45,683 bases of DNA from an uncultured Candidatus Saccharibacteria bacterium (GTDB taxonomy: Bacteria > Patescibacteriota > Minisyncoccia > Phycocordibacterales > UBA9973), in the NCBI GenBank assembly GCA_964618365.1, contig CAZUAA010000002.1, positions 8,084 through 53,766 on the forward strand. Reading direction: 5' to 3'. The notes beneath the pieces are model-generated. The model had not been told where the DNA came from and ran no database searches. It was given only the letters and a program-made list of their open reading frames with translations. A program made the position numbers and the translations under genes. The first letter of the stretch is position 1; each line of letters opens with the position of its first letter. Positions 10,935 to 20,343 of this stretch are shown here, one piece after another.

Positions 10935-11864
10935 CTATTCTATATTAGCCAAACATTCATTAAAAGATTTAACTTGTATATTATATTTATCTATTTTTTC
11001 TTTAACTTCTTTTACAGTTTCATTGAAATCATTTACAACAGAATTATATTTTATTATCTGCTCTGTGGTCGTCATCCCCTCGTATAGTCCCCCGTTTTCT
11101 ATCTTTTCCTTCCTGTTGTTAAGGTCTTCACCCATATCACTTATCTTTTCATTCAAGAAATTAATAGAATTCTTTAAAACCTCATCTACAATAGGGCAAG
11201 CATTCTTGGGAAGACCAAAGTGTTGAACCGCCATCCAGACATTATTGCCTTCATATTTACCATATTTAATAGCTACACCTATTTCTGTGTAATTTTTATT
11301 TATAATATTAGCTCTATGACCCTCACTATTCATCCAGGCTTTTATAAGATCTTCATTATTCTCAAACGAGCCCATAGCAAGATTTTCTCCCATTAAAATA
11401 TATTGGTATGATACTTGATCACCCAAGTCTCCTACTTCTACACCAGATGGAGATACATGTTCGAAATAAACTTTAGCAAACATATCGTCTACCTTTTTTT
11501 GAGCAGATAAATTTAACTTCTCGTTTACCCGGAGAGCATCTAGTCCTTGCTCAAGGACTCTTATTTCATTTGTAAGTCTAATCACGCCATCACGAGAAAG
11601 CGAATCGCTGGAAGTAATTTCTTTATTAAAAATTTTATCTGTGACAACAAGAGCTCCAGGAGTTTTTATCTTATCTGGTAATTGTGTTAATTCATTTCGA
11701 CTTTCTTTTATTTTAATACTAGTGCTTTTTGCTAAGTCAGTAGCAATAGTACTATTATTAAAAGAAGAAGCCAAACTATTATAAATAACCGTAAGGTCTT
11801 CCCTTATAATAAAAAGTGAAATAACAACGAACATTATTATAAAAATTTGATAAAATAATCGCAT
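10935..11864 (-). CDS. Membrane-anchored CAP/SCP (YkwD-like) domain protein.
   Basis: N-terminal TM helix, then the CAP-domain core GENLAMG...AWMNSEGHRANI..NYTEIGVA. Confidence 0.8.
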   Translation of the reverse strand: MRLFYQIFIIMFVVISLFIIREDLTVIYNSLASSFNNSTIATDLAKSTSIKIKESRNELTQLPDKIKTPGALVVTDKIFNKEITSSDSLSRDGVIRLTNEIRVLEQGLDALRVNEKLNLSAQKKVDDMFAKVYFEHVSPSGVEVGDLGDQVSYQYILMGENLAMGSFENNEDLIKAWMNSEGHRANIINKNYTEIGVAIKYGKYEGNNVWMAVQHFGLPKNACPIVDEVLKNSINFLNEKISDMGEDLNNRKEKIENGGLYEGMTTTEQIIKYNSVVNDFNETVKEVKEKIDKYNIQVKSFNECLANIE

Positions 11865-12597: not shown

Positions 12598-12606
12598 ATC
12601 TAAATA

Positions 12607-12638
12607 AAAATTCCTCAGACTTGAGTCTGAGGAATTTT
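12607..12638. terminator. Bidirectional terminator between rpmA and the convergent operon.
   Basis: 14-bp stem aaaattcctcagac/gtctgaggaatttt. Confidence 0.8.
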
Positions 12639-13180
12639 TATTTAGACACACTTATCACTCCATCATATTTATCACTTATAATATGAGCCGAATATTTTGG
12701 TAAATCTAATTTATTTTTTGGCACAAGATCCTCTGGATAAGAAAAAAATATTTTTGTTTTAAATTCTTTCTTTAATAATTCATCTTTAAAAATACATCTA
12801 TTTAAATCACCAGAAAATATAACTAATTTATTATCCTTAAGTACTTCAAATAATTTTCTATCATAATTATCTATATTTTTAAATAAAATTATTCTTTCGG
12901 AAATATCAGAAATCTCTTCAAGTTGTTTTATAAATAAATCATCATTTCCTGATTCTATTATTAAAATTTTTTCATTTATAAGATTACCGACTTCTTCTTT
13001 AAATAATTCTTTAGCTTGATCATAAGCTGAAAACAAAAGAACCTTCTCCCCATGCTTAAATAAATCAACCATAATTTTTATGCTAAAAAAAGAAGAACCT
13101 TCTCCGGGAGCACCAGAAATAAGCATGGGGAAATCTTCATGATCAAACTTTATTATTTCATTATTAATTATCATTTTCAT
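12638..13180 (-). CDS. RecA/KaiC-fold-like protein with a degenerate (lysine-less) P-loop.
   Basis: PMLISGAPGEGSSFFSIKIMVDLFKHGEKVLLFSAY resembles the P-loop strand-helix of RecA/KaiC-type ATPases, but GEGSS replaces GxGK[ST]. It is the last gene of the Cys-rich paralogue operon, 15 nt after the previous stop. Confidence 0.6.
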   Translation of the reverse strand: MKMIINNEIIKFDHEDFPMLISGAPGEGSSFFSIKIMVDLFKHGEKVLLFSAYDQAKELFKEEVGNLINEKILIIESGNDDLFIKQLEEISDISERIILFKNIDNYDRKLFEVLKDNKLVIFSGDLNRCIFKDELLKKEFKTKIFFSYPEDLVPKNKLDLPKYSAHIISDKYDGVISVSK

Positions 13181-13195
13181 AATTAAAGTATATCA

Positions 13196-14893
13196 TTAAT
13201 AAACCTCATTTTGATAACAACGCTCACAATATATAATCTCTGGTCTATCTGGAGCATAACTTGTCTCGAATTCATTAGTACAGCCTTCTTTCATACAAGA
13301 ACGATGATAAAGGATCATGGGGTTACGTAGAGATAGTCTTTCTTTATATCTTTCATCTGGGTGTAAGTGAGGGATAGGTATATTCATTCTTCTATAGAAT
13401 TGTAATTCAAATGGGGTTATTTTGTAAGCACGGTGAGATTTCTCACATTCAATGACTTCATTTAGGATAGAGTCATCTATATCTTTAATATTGTCAGAGA
13501 TATCACTGGCTTTTAGAGTAATAGTATATGTGTTATCTACTTTTTCTTTATATGGATAACCTCTTTCTATTATTTCTTCTTTTGATAATGGAAAGTGATC
13601 ATTGATTACTGCTTCATTGTATCCAAATGGGCATAGTTCATATGGGAAGAATTCACCATACTTGTATACCCTACCCTTGCTATCTATGTAGGGCATGTCA
13701 GACATATGTTTCTTTATTTTATCTACCATAGAGAAATATTCTTCCTTTGAATATTGTTTGTTTAGGATACAGTATTGTTTGTTTTTGAGGGCGATGCAAC
13801 CGAAGAGGTTGGAGGAGGAATATGAAAAATCTGAATATTCTGATTCACGAAGATTTATATTACCATTTGAAATAAATTTAACATCATACCCATCGGTTGC
13901 TCCTAATGTATGCTCATATACCAAATTACCTCTTAAACTATGAGAAGTATCCATAACATCCTTGTTTCCAACATTTCGATATCCATATTTAACATTTTCA
14001 GCATCTATAACATTAAAAGAGTTGCTTGTATTTTTACAATTTCTCAATTCGTCCCCAGATGAATTTTGAGAATTAATAATATTCGCATACTTCCTAGGAA
14101 ATTGTAAAGAAAATTTCCAAAACTCTTTTTTAAAACTTTCAATAAACGAATGACTACTCATATCTAATTCTTTCATCTTCTCCTCATACACTTCTTTGGT
14201 ATATTGTTCATTTAAAATACAATATCTTTGATTATTTAAATTTACGCAACCAAAACAGTCTTGGCAGTTATTACAGTTAAGAATGAAGTTGCAGTTTATA
14301 CAGGAAGAAGACCAATATGAATATTGGCAAAAATAATTTTTGTTAGCTCCCATATTTTCATATAATAATTCACTACTTGTTATATTATAGGAATCAATTA
14401 TTTGTTTAGAGGAATCAATATTACTTGAATAATAAACGTATTCTGAATTTAAAATTACAGAAAACGCTAAATATACATCCTTAACCCCAGAAACAATATT
14501 TGTAAATTCACAATTTTTATTTTCTCCATGAGTATACAACGAAACCCTTGGAATTTTATTAAACAAATTACTAAATTGCTCAAAAAAAGATTGGGAAAAA
14601 TCATAATCTTTTACATATGTTTCAGCACCCCAATTATCACTTTTATAACACTCTGGACAGTATACAGGAAAAGGAGATTTATCATCATACATAGCAATAA
14701 TATTTTTCTTACACATATCGCAAGTTCTTTTATATAAAGATCTTTCATTTCTCCATATCATTCTACGAACGAAACGACAATGGGGGCAAAAGGTTGGTGG
14801 TGGGACTTTAATTTTCTCATAAAACAAAAAATCATCGGGCTCGATAGTAAAGTCTTTTTTACAATTTTGACAATTTCTTGTTTGTGGTTCCAT
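13196..14893 (-). CDS. Cys-rich zinc-ribbon repeat protein, paralogue 1 (565 aa).
   Basis: N-terminal CxxC...CPxCR...CxxC...CxxC module, then internal Cys/Asn-rich repeats ending CFGCVNLNNQRYCILNEQYTKEVY and FGCIALKNKQYCILNKQYSKEEY. The C-terminal module ends YAPDRPEIIYCERCYQNEVY. Confidence 0.85.
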   Translation of the reverse strand: MEPQTRNCQNCKKDFTIEPDDFLFYEKIKVPPPTFCPHCRFVRRMIWRNERSLYKRTCDMCKKNIIAMYDDKSPFPVYCPECYKSDNWGAETYVKDYDFSQSFFEQFSNLFNKIPRVSLYTHGENKNCEFTNIVSGVKDVYLAFSVILNSEYVYYSSNIDSSKQIIDSYNITSSELLYENMGANKNYFCQYSYWSSSCINCNFILNCNNCQDCFGCVNLNNQRYCILNEQYTKEVYEEKMKELDMSSHSFIESFKKEFWKFSLQFPRKYANIINSQNSSGDELRNCKNTSNSFNVIDAENVKYGYRNVGNKDVMDTSHSLRGNLVYEHTLGATDGYDVKFISNGNINLRESEYSDFSYSSSNLFGCIALKNKQYCILNKQYSKEEYFSMVDKIKKHMSDMPYIDSKGRVYKYGEFFPYELCPFGYNEAVINDHFPLSKEEIIERGYPYKEKVDNTYTITLKASDISDNIKDIDDSILNEVIECEKSHRAYKITPFELQFYRRMNIPIPHLHPDERYKERLSLRNPMILYHRSCMKEGCTNEFETSYAPDRPEIIYCERCYQNEVY

Positions 14894-14908
14894 AATTAAA
14901 TTATATCA

Positions 14909-16567
14909 TTAATACACTTCTTGCTGATAACAGTGTTCACAGTAAACTATCTCTGGCCTATCTGGGGCATAATTAGTTTTAATGTCTTTACTACATTTGT
15001 CACATTTACGATCCCAGAATTTATATGGGCCTCTTCTTTCTATTCTATTTTTATGTCTACAAAAGAAACATTTTCTAGGTATTGGTAGTTTCATCTTTTT
15101 ATAGAAAAATAGTTCTTGTTCTGTTATTTTATAGTTTCTTTCACAATCTATGCATCTTAATATTTCTTTAGTTATATCATTGTTTATATTATCTATATGG
15201 TCAGGTATTTCTTCTGGTTTTAATGTTTCTTTTCCTTTGGTCATCTGTATATTATCTTCCCAACGGAAACCTTGAGCTAGAGCTTCTTGTTTGGTGAGAG
15301 GCATATTGTCTTGGGCTATTGTTTCGTTGTAGGCAAATGGAGCTATCTCTGGAGGCATCATAAGCCCATATATTCCCCTTTCAGTAAGTTCTTTGATTAT
15401 ATGATTTTTTAATTCTTCATATTCTTCTTTTGTATATTGTTTATTTAAAATACAATACTCAGCATTTTTGAGTCCATCACAACCGATGCAATCATGGCAA
15501 TTATTTAACATATGTGAATACAAGATATTTCTTGAATTTGTGACAGAACAAGAACCTATAACATTAGAAGAATACCCGACAGCTGTACACTCTAAAAGAT
15601 TTTCACACTTAAAACCAAAACCCACAGTCCCAATTGAATCTTTAATTTCCTTACTAGCAAATATAAATTTGCAATTTTCTCCATTTGCTATTTCAAAAGA
15701 ATTATATACATTTTTACATTCAGTAAGATAGTCTCCATTGGAGTCAAAAGTTTTTAAATTATGATTCTCTCTATGAGGAAATTGTAGGCAAAAATCATTA
15801 AATTTATTCATCATTTCTTTCATTTTCGAGTAACTTCCAGTGATTTCTTTTAATCTATCTATGTATTCATCTCTTGTAATCTGTTCATTAAACCAACAAT
15901 AACTTTGATTTCGAAGGTTTATACATCCAAAACAATTTGTGAGACCACTACAATTTTTTATAAACATACAGTCAACACAATTATTTGAGTCTTGACCATA
16001 AATTACCTTTGAAGATTTAGGGCAATTCACACATTCATAATCTAATTCCATATCTAAACCATAATAACAATCCATAACTTCATTAGAGGTTCTTACACCC
16101 TTAGTATATAAAGACTCTTCAAGGGGACCACAATTAAATACAAAATAACAATTCTTTAAACCACCAGCATAATTAGAATAATTACTATTTATATTGGGCC
16201 CAGATCCTAAAGAAATATATGTTGGAGATTTTGGAACAATTTTTGTTAGACTACCTAATTGTTCAAAAAAACTTTTATTGTAATCATATGTAAATGAATA
16301 TTGATAACCATCCCACATATCTGAAGAATAATAATTATGAGAAACTACATTATATTTATTTTTTGAGTTATACATTGTAATAATCGATTCACCACTAACA
16401 GAACAAGACCCAGTATACAAACTTGTCTCATTTCTCCACATAGCTCGCATTTTAAATCTACAATCAGGGCATACTTCTGGTACTGGAACTTTCATTTTTT
16501 CATAAAAAGAAAGATCGTCTTGATCTAGGTTAAATTCAATATTACATTTTATGCATGTTTTATTCAT
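14909..16567 (-). CDS. Cys-rich zinc-ribbon repeat protein, paralogue 2 (552 aa).
   Basis: Same architecture as paralogue 1, with a complete C-terminal CxxC...CxxCR...CxxC...YCEHCYQQEVY module. Confidence 0.85.
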   Translation of the reverse strand: MNKTCIKCNIEFNLDQDDLSFYEKMKVPVPEVCPDCRFKMRAMWRNETSLYTGSCSVSGESIITMYNSKNKYNVVSHNYYSSDMWDGYQYSFTYDYNKSFFEQLGSLTKIVPKSPTYISLGSGPNINSNYSNYAGGLKNCYFVFNCGPLEESLYTKGVRTSNEVMDCYYGLDMELDYECVNCPKSSKVIYGQDSNNCVDCMFIKNCSGLTNCFGCINLRNQSYCWFNEQITRDEYIDRLKEITGSYSKMKEMMNKFNDFCLQFPHRENHNLKTFDSNGDYLTECKNVYNSFEIANGENCKFIFASKEIKDSIGTVGFGFKCENLLECTAVGYSSNVIGSCSVTNSRNILYSHMLNNCHDCIGCDGLKNAEYCILNKQYTKEEYEELKNHIIKELTERGIYGLMMPPEIAPFAYNETIAQDNMPLTKQEALAQGFRWEDNIQMTKGKETLKPEEIPDHIDNINNDITKEILRCIDCERNYKITEQELFFYKKMKLPIPRKCFFCRHKNRIERRGPYKFWDRKCDKCSKDIKTNYAPDRPEIVYCEHCYQQEVY

Positions 16568-16570
16568 ATA

Positions 16571-18286
16571 TTAATAAACCTCCTGCTGGTAACATTTCTC
16601 ACAATAAATAATCTCTGGTCTATCTGGTGAATAACTGGTTTCAAATTCATTAGTACATCCTTCTTTCATACAGGATCTATGCCAGAGTTTAAGAGGGTTT
16701 CTTTGGGAAAGTCTTTCGTAGTGTCTACAGTTAGGACAGAGTCTAGGGATAGGTAGATTCATACGGCGGTAGAATTGGTATTCTTCAGGGATTATCTTGA
16801 ATGCTTCTGTACATTGATGATTACAGTCTTTGTGGAGACATTCTATTACTTTACCTACTATTCCTTCATCTGTATCATTTATATCATCTGGAATGTCATT
16901 GTTTTTGATATCTATATTGTAATTTCTTTCTTCTTTCTCTTTCCATTTGTATCCTTGCTCTAATGCTTCCTCTTTAGTTAAAGGATAGTATTCTTGAGCT
17001 ATGGTTTCATTATAGGCAAAGGGAGAGAGTTCAGATGGGAAGAACTCTCCATATTTGTATACCCTACCCATACTATCTATGTAGGGCATGTCAGACATAT
17101 GTTTGATGATTTTGGGGACGACTACATCGAATTGTTCATAGGACTATAGGTGGTTCAAGACACAGTAGGATTTGTTTTTAAGACCAATGCAAGCGAAACA
17201 ATTAGAGCAAGAAGTTAGAGCAAAACAATAATTAACATTAAAAGAATTATTTCTAATCACTAAAGAAAATAGTGACTTAGAAATATTCATACTAACAGAC
17301 ATGGATTCATAAACATTATCAAGATTTAATCCGGCACTTGTACTATCATAAATATCTCGAGCTACTCCAACTATATCTTGAGAGTTTTTACTATTTTCTG
17401 TCTTGGAAATATTAAAGCCATTAAAAACATTTACACTTTCGGAAATATTATTACCAGAACAATTTTGTGATTTTAAAATGTTAGCATATTTTTTAGGATG
17501 TAAAACTAAAAATTCCTTAAACTCTTTTTTAAGAGAATCTAAATTATGATGTAAATCATATAAAAATTTATCTTTTATTTTTAGATATTCTTCTTTTGTA
17601 TATTGTTCGTTTTTATAACAATAAGTTTTGTTTCTTAAATTACAACACATTATGCAATCATTACAATTTACTGAATCTTGTAAAAAGTAACTATCCATAC
17701 AATCTTTTATATTATTACCATAACAAACCCTAAAACATTTCTGGCAATTTAATATCTCATAACAAAACTCATTATCCATAGAAAAATATATCTCCATGGA
17801 ATCTTTAGTCCTTAACCCAACATTAGAAAATCTCACATTTTCGATATAACCACCACCAAAACAATAGTGGCAATTATTTGCTTCAACAATAAAATTAACA
17901 TATGGTGAATTTTTATTTGAAATATGCCCATTAAGATTCATCTCTGGGACTTTTTTATATAGATTTAAATATTGTTCAAAAAAATTTATTGAAAAGTCAT
18001 ATGTCGAACCATAATCTAAAGCATCCCAACTATCACCAAGCCAACAATCCTGACAATAGACATTAATATCATCACCACCAAAAACTGATATCATTTTTTT
18101 ATCACAATTATTACAATTTCTATGATAGAAAGATCTTTCATTTCTCCATATCATTCGTCTTACCATTCTACATTCCGAGCAAAAAGTTGGTGCTGGAACT
18201 TTTATTTTCTCATAGAACACAAAATCATCCGACTCAATAATAAAGTCTTTCTTGCAGTTCTGGCATTGCTTTGTCTGTGATTCCAT
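16571..18286 (-). pseudogene. Cys-rich zinc-ribbon repeat protein, paralogue 3. A 571-codon frame is interrupted by one in-frame TAG at 17144-17146.
   Basis: ORFs 17144..18286 and 16571..17098 are in the same frame (573 nt apart). The 15 codons between the TAG and the next ATG are open and align with the paralogues (SYEQFDVVVPKIIKHMSDMPY vs SKEEYFSMVDKIKKHMSDMPY). Confidence 0.75.
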
Positions 18287-18295
18287 ATATTTTGA

Positions 18296-19477
18296 TTATC
18301 TCACAACCCCACCCCCCAGGCAAATATCTCCATCATAAATTACTATTGACTGACCACTATCCACCAAAACATTTCTAGTAAACTCTACTTCTGCACAAGT
18401 TGGACTTGTGCAAGATTTTATTTTACAATCAAGCAATTCTCCATGATATCTGATTTGGCATTTATAATTTTTATTCATTTCGGGTTCAATAATCCAATTT
18501 GTATTTATAAGATTAACTATACTCCCACTATTATTCCCACCAGTCGGACTGGTGGCCAGTCCCAAGCCTTGCTTGGGACTAACGTTGATAGTATTGTTCT
18601 TTATATCCTTTGAAATTACATATAAAGGTTTATTATTGTCTTCATTTTTAAAGATTTTAAATCCATGTCTTTCTCCTAGAGTAAAAAATACTGCTCCGTC
18701 ATGAGAACCGATAGTATTCCCTTCTTCGTCTAACAGGTCACCACTCTTTTTCTCTAAATAATGATTAAGAAAATCTTTCATATCAAGTGGAGCCAAGAAG
18801 CAAACCCCCTGGCTATCTTTCTTTTCTGCAACAGGAATTTTGTATTTCAAAGCTTTCCTCCTTACTTCTTTTTTATCTAAATGTCCAATAGGAAAAAGTG
18901 TATGCTCTAAATCTTCTTGCTTTAAAGTCCAAAGAAAATAGGATTGATCTTTTGATAAATCTGGGGATTTCTTAAGCCGAGAATAAATGTTCTTTTTAGA
19001 GTGGTCTGGCACCGGCTCCCGTCCCCCTCGTCCGAGGACCCGAGAAAAAGAATATTTCTTCTCGGCTTTTAATGAAGATGAATTTTTTTCACATACCGCA
19101 TAATGTCCTGTCGCAATATAATCCGCCCCATGCTTTTTAGCAAAGTCCCAAAAAACTCCAAACTTCACTTCACGATTACACATAACATCTGGATTTGGAG
19201 TTCTCCCTTTTTTATATTCTTCTATCATATAATCTGCTACTCCTTTTTTATAAGCTTCTTCTGCATCACACTCCAAAAAAGGTATCCCTAGATGTGCACA
19301 GACTCTCATCGCATCTCGCCTTTCATCACGCCAAGTGCACTCTATAAAATCCGGAGTCCATGTACGAATAAAAACCCCAACGACATTATATCCTTGGTCT
19401 TTAAGTAGAGAGGCCGATACAGAAGAATCAACTCCACCCGATACTCCCACAAATACAGTTTTTATTTCCTTTCCCAT
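18296..19477 (-). CDS. mnmA: tRNA 2-thiouridine(34) synthase MnmA, with GC-rich in-frame insertions.
   Basis: PP-loop VGVSGGVDSSV, plus GRTPNPDV.CN, ATGHYA and KDQSYFLW. I prefer the start MGKEIKTVF at 19477. Confidence 0.9.
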   Translation of the reverse strand: MGKEIKTVFVGVSGGVDSSVSASLLKDQGYNVVGVFIRTWTPDFIECTWRDERRDAMRVCAHLGIPFLECDAEEAYKKGVADYMIEEYKKGRTPNPDVMCNREVKFGVFWDFAKKHGADYIATGHYAVCEKNSSSLKAEKKYSFSRVLGRGGREPVPDHSKKNIYSRLKKSPDLSKDQSYFLWTLKQEDLEHTLFPIGHLDKKEVRRKALKYKIPVAEKKDSQGVCFLAPLDMKDFLNHYLEKKSGDLLDEEGNTIGSHDGAVFFTLGERHGFKIFKNEDNNKPLYVISKDIKNNTINVSPKQGLGLATSPTGGNNSGSIVNLINTNWIIEPEMNKNYKCQIRYHGELLDCKIKSCTSPTCAEVEFTRNVLVDSGQSIVIYDGDICLGGGVVR

Positions 19478-20343
19478 CTTGCAAATATACCACAAGGTAG
19501 TAATCTATCACTATTTGATTCTTTAATAGCAAGCTCGCCCCCTTCTATTTTACCACCAAATTTATTTTGTATTTCTTTTAAATTATTCTCGTAAACAATA
19601 GATGAATACCCCGCTGTATATCCATTTATAAGGACAAAAAGTGGATCATCTGATAAGACATTATCACACAAATCCATCAATTCTAAAAAGTTTTCTTCTA
19701 TCTTCCAAAGTTCGTCTTTTGGACCATGACCAAAAGATGGTGGGTCCATTATTATACAATCATATTTATTTCCTCTTTTAATTTCCCTTTTAAGAAAAGT
19801 CACGACATCTTCTATAAGCCACCTAATAGGTGCGTCTTTGAATCCATTTAATTCTGCATTCTCCCTAGCCCAAGTGACTGCCTGTTTTGAAGAATCTACA
19901 TGGCAAACTTCTGCCCCCGAGGATGCACAAGCAAGAGTCGCCCCACCAGTATATGCAAAAAGATTTAGAACTTTTATTTTTCTATTTTGTTTTTTTATTA
20001 AATTTTCCATCCATTCCCAATTCAAAAGTTGCTCTGGAAAAATACCAATATGTTTAAAAGAAGTTGGTTTAATTGTAAAATTAAAATTTCCAAAATTAAT
20101 TTTCCAATCTTTTGAAACACCATTTTTTATAATCCATCGTGACTGCGCACGCAGGTTAGTTTTATTACCACTACGCTCAAATAAAAGACTAGCTTTACTC
20201 CACTCTTTTTTATCTAAATTTTTTTTCCACAAAGCTTCAGGATCTGGGCGAGACATTACAAAACTTCCATATCTTTCTAATTTCTCACCATTTCCAGAAT
20301 CTATAAGCTCATAATCTTTTTGTTTTTCTAATTTTAAAATCAT
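19462..20343 (-). CDS. Class I SAM-dependent (RlmI/YwbD-like) RNA methyltransferase.
   Basis: VLNLFAYTGGATLA (motif I), HVDSS and IIMDPPSFG (motif IV). Confidence 0.85.
   Translation of the reverse strand: MILKLEKQKDYELIDSGNGEKLERYGSFVMSRPDPEALWKKNLDKKEWSKASLLFERSGNKTNLRAQSRWIIKNGVSKDWKINFGNFNFTIKPTSFKHIGIFPEQLLNWEWMENLIKKQNRKIKVLNLFAYTGGATLACASSGAEVCHVDSSKQAVTWARENAELNGFKDAPIRWLIEDVVTFLKREIKRGNKYDCIIMDPPSFGHGPKDELWKIEENFLELMDLCDNVLSDDPLFVLINGYTAGYSSIVYENNLKEIQNKFGGKIEGGELAIKESNSDRLLPCGIFARWERK

Follow-up and report, generated by a model that had tools for sequence, protein, structure and literature searches.

A large Patescibacteria family of cysteine-rich proteins with predicted solenoid repeats between duplicated 8-Cys modules, encoded in tandem arrays of diverged copies

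Bacteria belonging to the Candidate Phyla Radiation (CPR), or Patescibacteria, make up a large share of bacterial diversity and have genomes of 1 Mb or less, in which much of the sequence has no known function. In this work we examine a window of 45,683 nucleotides (the whole stretch of DNA that was analyzed; contig CAZUAA010000002.1 of assembly GCA_964618365.1, positions 8,084 to 53,766) from an uncultured Candidatus Saccharibacteria bacterium, in which three consecutive minus-strand genes encode large Cys-rich homologues: paralogue 1 (par1; 13196-14893, 565 aa), paralogue 2 (par2; 14909-16567, 552 aa) and paralogue 3 (par3; 16571-18286, a 571-residue translation with a single TAG). As a preliminary description of this DNA had noted, the three lie between the tRNA 2-thiouridine synthase gene mnmA and a small gene at 12638-13180, with stop-to-start gaps of 15 and 3 nt. 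What kind of protein do they encode, how did three copies come to stand side by side, and with what partners might they work? Our analyses define a family of soluble proteins with putative zinc fingers and a predicted solenoid, in which tandem arrays of diverged copies are the rule, and we tentatively read its members as non-enzymatic cytoplasmic scaffolds or adaptors that work with P-loop partners, a role that is possible rather than probable.

The family matches no protein type or system described so far, and its architecture is new. Scans of the three copies against Pfam and NCBIfam gave only sub-threshold matches, all at the extreme C terminus, and scans against PADLOC and PHROGs gave nothing above threshold, while PDB sequence searches with two family profiles returned only sub-threshold LIM-like matches. 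Literature searches yielded no description of the family, the papers found being context papers on the CxxC-x17-CxxC motif and on VirD4 homologues. The first impression that these proteins belong to no named family therefore holds for Pfam, NCBIfam, PADLOC, PHROGs and PDB.

Each protein is built in the order basic 8-Cys module, two capped solenoids, acidic PF.YNET domain and second 8-Cys module. The homology of the two terminal modules and the internal duplication of the center, both proposed at the outset from the motifs, are borne out by hhalign, which relates the N-terminal to the C-terminal module with a probability of 99.3% (E 1e-20) and central repeat 1 to repeat 2 with a probability of 99% (E 7e-18). 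A terminal module carries eight Cys, arranged as CxxC-x24-CxxC followed by CxxC-x17-CxxC, and probably binds two zinc ions. In par2, the most conserved subtype, the N-terminal zinc module spans residues 1-92 (16292-16567, minus strand, as are all features of the gene), with its first site (N1) intact as CCCC and its second (N2) degenerate (C-S-S-Y). Solenoid 1 follows at residues 126-231 (15875-16192) and consists of eight 12-residue units that end in a closing CxxCxxCxxC and a ..N.Q..(K/R)(E/D)EY box; solenoid 2, its internal duplicate, occupies residues 263-378 (15434-15781). The acidic linker domain, at residues 399-465 (15173-15373), contains a near-invariant G..P.E..PF.YNE motif, and residues 466-552 (14912-15172) form the C-terminal zinc module with both Cys4 spacings in place.

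The terminal modules had been called zinc ribbons. They are indeed Cys4 modules, but are better described as a treble-clef-like finger pair, with weak matches to PF23477 and PF13451. The second sites of both modules (N2 and C2) share the CxxC-x17-CxxC spacing of the fingers PF23477 (zf_Tbcl_2), PF13451 (zf_Tbcl) and TIGR04272; among 44 diverse family members PF23477 is matched by 23 and PF13451 by 20 (E<1), the best match having E 7e-7, and some orthologues carry a precomputed PF23477 match. In the window, par2 falls under the curated cut-offs (16.6 bits against 27 for PF23477, and 14.6 against 36 for TIGR04272), and par1 and par3 have no match to either. These fingers correspond, however, to only half of the family's 8-Cys module, which has a conserved FYEKMKVP.P..CP.CR insert and stands twice in each protein (about 560 aa). 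Experimental support for the zinc assignment is indirect and comes solely from small Methanosarcina proteins that consist of a CxxC-x17-CxxC domain (TIGR04272) and have been found to bind Zn by inductively coupled plasma mass spectrometry (PMC12704099). A second point of comparison is offered by LIM domains, protein-interaction scaffolds of two adjacent zinc fingers, since the family likewise has two Cys4-type fingers in about 60-90 residues. The LIM profile matches (CRP, PDLIM) are weak (E 0.006-0.05) and all below threshold, PF00412 reaching E 0.054 and 14.2 bits against a cut-off of 22.9 on the par3 C-terminal fragment and the PDB profile matches E 0.006-0.01; spacing and ligand set differ from the C2HC + C4 double finger of LIM domains. 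Any resemblance would be convergent or, at best, that of a very distant relative.

Conservation, zinc sites and transmembrane (TM) or signal segments were counted over 198 members of full length. Of the four presumed sites for zinc, N1 is intact in 97% of these, N2 in 55%, C1 in 84% and C2 in 97%. Because all four sites are kept in only 101 of the 198, the absence of C1 from par1, where the loss of the C-terminal C..CR pair had been seen correctly and the first C-terminal site now reads C-S-H-E, and of N2 from par2 represents ordinary variation and not decay; the C-S-S-Y form of N2 also recurs in 9 of 49 par2-type orthologues (alignment A2). Proteins contain a median of 35 Cys, and the median isoelectric point (pI) is 8.3 for the N-terminal and 8.9 for the C-terminal zinc module, the latter with a median charge of +5.6, against 4.4 for the PF.YNET linker domain and 6.3 for the whole protein. 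No TM-like or signal-like segment was found in any member, and the family proteins are soluble and devoid of a signal peptide. At a conservation of 95% or more the alignment columns hold Cys, aromatic residues, Pro and Gly, with Asn, Asp, Arg and Gln in a few cases; His is absent even when the threshold is lowered to 85%. This make-up of the invariant residues, mostly Cys, aromatic, Pro and Gly with no His, argues against an enzyme.

The central region had been described as a Cys/Asn-rich short repeat. The composition is as described, and the repeat proves to be no hexapeptide but a unit of 12 residues made up of N-C-x triplets. In the family alignment Cys is confined to every third column of the region; the spectra of hydropathy and of Cys have their peaks at 3.0 and about 11.5 residues. 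Column profiles show positive autocorrelation at multiples of 3 and at no other lag, the highest values being those at 12, 24 and 36 residues, and lag 6 does not exceed lag 3. The pooled unit has the consensus N-C-x-N-C-x-N-C-Phi-Phi-C-Phi. Interior Cys positions are Cys in only 23-48% of cases, being otherwise Ser, Val or Leu, except in the closing CxxCxxCxxC rung of solenoid 1, where they are conserved at 80-96%; a role of the interior Cys as conserved metal ligands was ruled out on these grounds. Such an N-C-x triplet unit, flanked by duplicated two-zinc modules, is unusual for a cytoplasmic protein.

An AlphaFold2 model of par2, built with a 50-sequence alignment (pLDDT, the per-residue confidence score, 80.9; predicted TM-score, pTM, 0.81), shows the first repeat region as all-beta with pLDDT above 90. 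The conserved box and following helix that had been noted after each repeat copy are visible in the alignments and in the model alike. Foldseek searches of the full par2 model against PDB and viral structures gave no significant structural neighbor. The best of the weak PDB matches are all left-handed beta-helix (LbH) proteins, namely LpxD (the top match, E 3e-4, probability 0.33, TM-score 0.08-0.11), GlmU and gamma-carbonic anhydrase, and the viral library likewise gave weak beta-helix matches, hexapeptide proteins among them. A beta-helix core between the zinc modules, which had been proposed for testing, is supported by the prediction, a solenoid being modeled and the weak matches all being beta-helix proteins. 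A separate model of the C-terminal 175 aa (pLDDT 78) found no fold match in PDB with Foldseek.

These matches raise the possibility that the family proteins are enzymes of the hexapeptide LbH acyltransferase (LpxA/LpxD, GlmU) or gamma-carbonic anhydrase type, which have in common with the family a parallel beta-solenoid, predicted in the latter. Against this, the TM-scores are only 0.08-0.23; the period is 3 and 12 residues and not the 6 and 18 that go with the imperfect hexapeptide [LIV]-[GAED]-x2-[STAV]-x; the Hexapep profile (PF00132) matches neither the three copies of the window nor any of 44 diverse members at E<=1; and none of the catalytic residues of those enzymes is conserved, the family offering no conserved His and no obvious catalytic set. 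We regard an enzyme of this type as very improbable. In the arrangement of its unit, the family recalls the antifreeze protein (AFP) of Tenebrio molitor (1EZG, TCTxSxxCxxAx), a Cys-ladder beta-helix whose 12-residue unit has small residues or Cys at positions 2, 5, 8 and 11, as in the family consensus. The comparison concerns the sequence pattern only, with coil length read from sequence, and is a pattern analogy and no more: hhalign detects no homology (probability 9% with the first solenoid, 6% with the second), and the AFP is not among the Foldseek matches of the family model. It is also secreted and disulfide-bonded, whereas the family lacks a signal peptide and has zinc modules on both sides of its solenoids.

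How widespread is this architecture? With par2 as query, more than 6,204 clusters (90% identity) were matched. Those with a name are all "hypothetical" proteins, which come from Candidatus Paceibacterota and groups related to it; the best 120 are par2-type orthologues across Paceibacterota, 58-78% identical over their whole length. The 175-aa C-terminal fragment matches 2,157 clusters at 50% identity. In a scan of one genome per GTDB species at least 575 loci were found, and all 80 of the 80 loci listed are from Patescibacteria, among them Paceibacterota, Nomura-, Staskawicz-, Jorgensen-, Azam-, Lipton-, Sungii-, Gracili-, Peregrini-, Peri- and Abawacabacteria. A scan of viral contigs gave no family relatives. 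When the three paralogues were compared by tblastn with 84 loci (windows of up to 22 kb), the number of copies per locus ranged from 1 to 12. The largest array, with 12 consecutive family genes, fills the whole 21.6 kb of its locus (L030:1-21662) and probably continues past the locus end; others contain 10 copies (L033), 9 copies (L028) or, in several Peribacteria, Abawacabacteria and Nomurabacteria loci, 7 copies. Tandem arrays of diverged copies are therefore the rule in the family, of which the triplet in the window is a small case, and arrays of 9-12 genes represent an unusually large outlay for genomes of about 1 Mb.

The triplet itself had been attributed to recent duplication or gene conversion, on the strength of an identical run of 32 nt in par1 and par3 (13680-13711 = 17073-17104) and of N termini about 75% identical. 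The run is exact, a second one of 28 nt accompanies it, and the terminal modules of par1 and par3 are 76-81% identical in nucleotide sequence. This likeness is limited to the terminal modules, with 40-60% elsewhere; the figure of 75% applies to the first 60 codons only, and the three proteins are pairwise just 39-49% identical. In addition, identical residues use the same codon in 62% of cases against 56% expected from codon usage, alike for all three pairs, and synonymous sites are saturated in every segment. Each copy also has a closer orthologue in another genome than in its own array (70% identity for par1 in L090, 78% for par2 in L090/P0003, and 75% for par3 in L095), and diverged arrays are usual in the family. 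A triplication by recent duplication, gene conversion or assembly error has next to no probability and is refuted for whole genes, short conversion tracts being possible; the 32-nt run marks at most one such tract. Since the copies are only 39-49% identical, the triplet is not a collapsed or duplicated assembly artefact, a possibility that the preliminary description had raised. By their sequence divergence, the three copies are ancient paralogues.

With what might such proteins work? When all open reading frames (ORFs) of 82 loci were clustered, the commonest neighbor outside the family was a VirD4/TraG/TrwB-like ATPase, found in 32 of the 82 loci and directly beside a family gene in 21 of them. 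In all 27 ATPase-family adjacencies the two genes share a strand, and the gap between them is mostly below 30 nt (median about 18 nt). The ATPases (e.g. L014:1815-4091, L014:9710-11215, L069:11789-14026 and L001:4814-8196) match PF10412, PF02534, PF12696 and DUF87 in Pfam as well as phrog_5156 (E 6e-61), and are without TM segments. They fall into a smaller subtype (about 490 aa) and a larger one (about 700-800 aa), the latter carrying a Pro-rich tail and a PF23477 finger (E 3e-11) that is 38% identical to the C-terminal finger of the family. In several loci the ATPase is preceded by a protein of 453-472 aa with N-terminal TM helices, whose soluble part is homologous to an N-domain that the 745-aa Peribacteria ATPases carry in fused form (E 5e-11). 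Type IV coupling proteins of the VirD4/TraG/TrwB kind, with their adaptors and substrates, are in this respect among the known systems closest to the family loci, but relaxase and channel genes were not observed next to the arrays. In a survey of 2025, 5,713 VirD4 homologues were counted in 2,918 Patescibacteria genomes, only 148 of these homologues being near virB4, and its authors suggest exaptation; the family is not mentioned there (PMC12102498).

The ATPase link is present in both Paceibacteria and Peribacteria/Gracilibacteria. In the latter the order is TrmB-like regulator, array, ATPase. In Paceibacteria the ATPase lies upstream of the array, within a grpE-dnaK-dnaJ-rsmE locus of the order grpE, family gene(s), PaaX-like regulator, dnaK, ATPase, par2-type gene, rsmE, ATPase, family gene, dnaJ. 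This ancestral heat-shock locus, interspersed with pairs of ATPase and family genes, was observed in L007, L010, L014, L015, L018, L020 and L021, with the PaaX-like regulator on the opposite strand. This recurrent gene order would be expected if the family proteins were Hsp70-linked proteostasis factors, acting as co-chaperones or obligate clients. The synteny is nevertheless confined to one class, being found neither in Peribacteria/Gracilibacteria arrays nor in the window, where there is no dnaK. Furthermore, neither the J-domain nor the CxxCxGxG motif of the DnaJ-type zinc finger occurs in the family alignments, and there is no DnaJ match in Pfam. A proteostasis role consequently appears distinctly improbable.

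The presence of a coupling-protein-like ATPase also brings in the alternative that the family proteins are translocated cargo, either effectors or surface-delivered factors in a host-dependent lifestyle, recognized by the ATPase and its membrane partner through the basic, Arg-rich C-terminal module. Diversified tandem arrays of up to 12 copies, the operonic adjacency to the ATPase and, at some loci, to the N-terminally membrane-anchored partner, and the charge of the C-terminal module (median +5.6) would all be in keeping with such a role. It is opposed by the absence of a signal peptide, by folded, zinc-stabilized termini that would make poor substrates for unfolding-dependent export, and by a conservation far above what is typical of effectors, with 58-78% identity across many genera in the par2 subtype and a ratio of nonsynonymous to synonymous substitution rates (dN/dS) of 0.12-0.17 in the two parts of par3; moreover, the ATPases are mostly not near virB4 (PMC12102498). 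We consider cargo unlikely.

A different use of the zinc modules, in which four treble-clef/zinc-ribbon fingers would bind nucleic acid during the processing of imported DNA or the organization of the nucleoid, with or without the ATPase, draws on the basic C4 fingers of the CxxC-x17-CxxC type and on the match of the neighboring ATPase to the TrwB DNA-binding domain. A gene for a Pif1-type helicase with a C-terminal HTH_40 domain also lies directly upstream of a par2-type gene in two loci (L002:8265-9980 and L003:2041-3756), and the window contains such a helicase at 736-2298, 11 kb from the family genes. Yet the family matches no characterized DNA- or RNA-binding family, the whole protein is mildly acidic (pI 6.3), and the inner fingers are often lost, so that this reading seems quite unlikely.

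In the window a candidate P-loop partner is encoded by the last gene of the operon (12638-13180, minus strand), a RecA/KaiC-like protein of 180 aa. Its profile matches to KaiC/RecA-type ATPases are weak (E 0.03), and one homologue is named KaiC/GvpD/RAD55 ATPase by the Joint Genome Institute (JGI). The Walker A consensus GxxxxGK[ST] is replaced by GAPGEGSS, and the Lys is missing from the L028, L018 and L090 homologues as well. About 112 homologues are detectable. The gene adjoins family genes in L007, L013, L018 and L028, and at L090:2609-4828, the closest relative, a 739-aa ORF consists of the RecA-like homologue (51% identity) fused in frame to a full family member, with an internal Met at the junction. 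A co-occurrence of the family with this gene and with mnmA had been put forward for checking. An obligate link with the former does not hold, given that only 6 of 9 contexts have it beside or fused to a family member while the other 3 do not, and a conserved link with mnmA fails too, its neighborhood recurring in only 1 other locus.

We thus return to the reading of the family proteins as scaffolds or adaptors, which we infer from these observations with the reservations stated above. In this arrangement the solenoids would provide a rigid surface for oligomerization or binding, the terminal zinc modules would act as binding hands for protein or nucleic acid, and the paralogues would represent different specificities or the parts of a hetero-oligomer. 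The partner would be, in many genomes, the orphan VirD4/TraG-like ATPase beside the arrays and, in some, including that of the window, the small degenerate RecA-like protein. Several observations weigh against this proposal. The 45.7-kb window holds no homologue of the VirD4-like ATPase, and adjacency to the ATPase is wanting in about 60% of loci, many of them short contigs; the suggested functional link between the two is drawn from gene adjacency. The RecA-like gene stands away from any family member in three of nine contexts, these being three long contigs. The placement within grpE-dnaK-dnaJ in Paceibacteria could point to proteostasis instead. On the structural side, the second solenoid of the par2 model is of low confidence (pLDDT 40-64), the fold matches are weak, with a highest TM-score of 0.23, and zinc binding by the modules is predicted from motifs only. 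Taken a step further, the solenoid arrays, the orphan VirD4-like ATPase and the membrane-anchored partner might together constitute an undescribed machine, maybe CPR-specific, in which the solenoid paralogues would serve as interchangeable adaptors or cargo. This is a doubtful extension; if true, it would account for about two coupling-protein homologues per Patescibacteria genome that are located away from a type IV secretion channel.

Within the window, the genes are tightly packed. The upstream neighbor mnmA (18296-19495, minus strand; NCBIfam E 2e-108) is separated by 9 nt from par3, and the successive intergenic gaps from mnmA through par3, par2 and par1 to the 180-aa gene are 9, 3, 15 and 15 nt in the table-11 ORF listing. 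A scan from mnmA to the 180-aa gene found no strong terminator-like site between the operon genes, the weak site of 7 pairs on the minus strand at 13101-13119 lying inside the 180-aa gene; a terminator-like hairpin with a 20-bp stem closes the unit on the minus strand at 12599-12646. Tight gaps, together with a hairpin only after the last gene, define mnmA-par3-par2-par1-180aa as one transcription unit. On the plus strand rpmA/L27 (12325-12597) converges on the 180-aa gene with the hairpin between them, which by its position looks like a bidirectional terminator shared by the two genes. A further gene of the window (10935-11864) encodes a protein with a CAP domain (PF00188, E 3e-17) whose N-terminal part includes a hydrophobic segment.

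The third copy raises a question of its own. Although par3 had been described as a gene of 571 codons, a TAG at 17144-17146 (minus strand) leaves two ORFs, one of 380 aa (17144-18286) with the N-terminal zinc module and both solenoid repeats, and one of 175 aa (16571-17098) with the acidic PF.YNET domain and C-terminal zinc module, which share one frame in the translation of 16571-18286. In the ..LNKQY(S/T)KEEY box that ends solenoid 2, the TAG takes the place of the Tyr. Since TAG is an ordinary stop elsewhere in the window, where it closes four other ORFs, par3 as assembled is really interrupted, and a reassignment of TAG is ruled out. A compensated frameshift around the TAG was likewise rejected, given that the motif is restored in neither of the other frames and that the patch has no second copy in the window. 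Neither fragment is on record as a called gene, and the exact DNA has no match in JGI metagenomes.

An intact orthologue of par3 (572 aa, 75% identical) is present at L095:3834-5552. Relative to this orthologue, from which it differs by a dS close to 1, par3 shows a dN/dS of 0.17 in the N-fragment and 0.12 in the C-fragment, compared with about 3 over the 12 codons round the TAG, where the junction reads NHL*SYEQFDVV in the window and NKQYTKEEYEEL in L095. Low ratios in both fragments and a ratio of about 3 between them indicate that the halves are constrained and the junction is free to change; both pieces of par3 are still under purifying selection. Columns conserved across the family are kept to 97% in the C-fragment and to only 80% in the N-fragment, whose odd features are common to the L095 orthologue. 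A recent nonsense mutation is possible, but the split fits better with a tolerated gene fission at a domain boundary than with a fresh pseudogene.

Among about 226 family genes in the loci there are only two other in-frame stops, both within 7 residues of the position of the par3 TAG. One is a TAA at the same box Tyr in L018 (nt 12775-12777), followed by an A8 run; the other, in a Peribacteria copy, is a TGA at the near-invariant box Cys (L056, nt 11147-11149), for which a nonsense mutation is the likeliest explanation. Three stops within the YC.LN.QY box at the end of solenoid 2 could be the result of recurrent gene fission at a domain boundary or of a recombination hot spot. Database representatives from other lineages include stand-alone ORFs of about 190-206 aa that start at a Met just after box 2 (P0159, P0177, P0189, P0197 and P0213), and further representatives, of about 351-368 aa, start at the homologous box 1 (P0152, P0161, P0169 and P0196), which places breakpoints at both copies of the box. 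As judged from these ORFs, they may be real split genes or may come from contigs broken at repeated DNA. At the DNA level, an exact match of 23 nt joins box 2 of par2 (15442-15464, gene offset 1126) to box 1 of par3 (17585-17607, gene offset 679), and the box copies are therefore alike enough to be substrates for unequal recombination. In P0150 (355 aa), the first 24 residues of the N-terminal module are joined straight to the helix after box 1 (..FYEQM|QEQY..), so that most of the N-terminal module and the whole of solenoid 1 are deleted from within this variant.

Together, these analyses identify one of the large unknowns of the CPR, a family of thousands of clusters to which some genomes devote at least 20 kb, and in its operonic link to a VirD4-like ATPase offer a concrete, testable partner. 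If that link is functional, the arrays would represent a new molecular system in host-dependent bacteria; if not, the family would still be a well-defined target for structural genomics.

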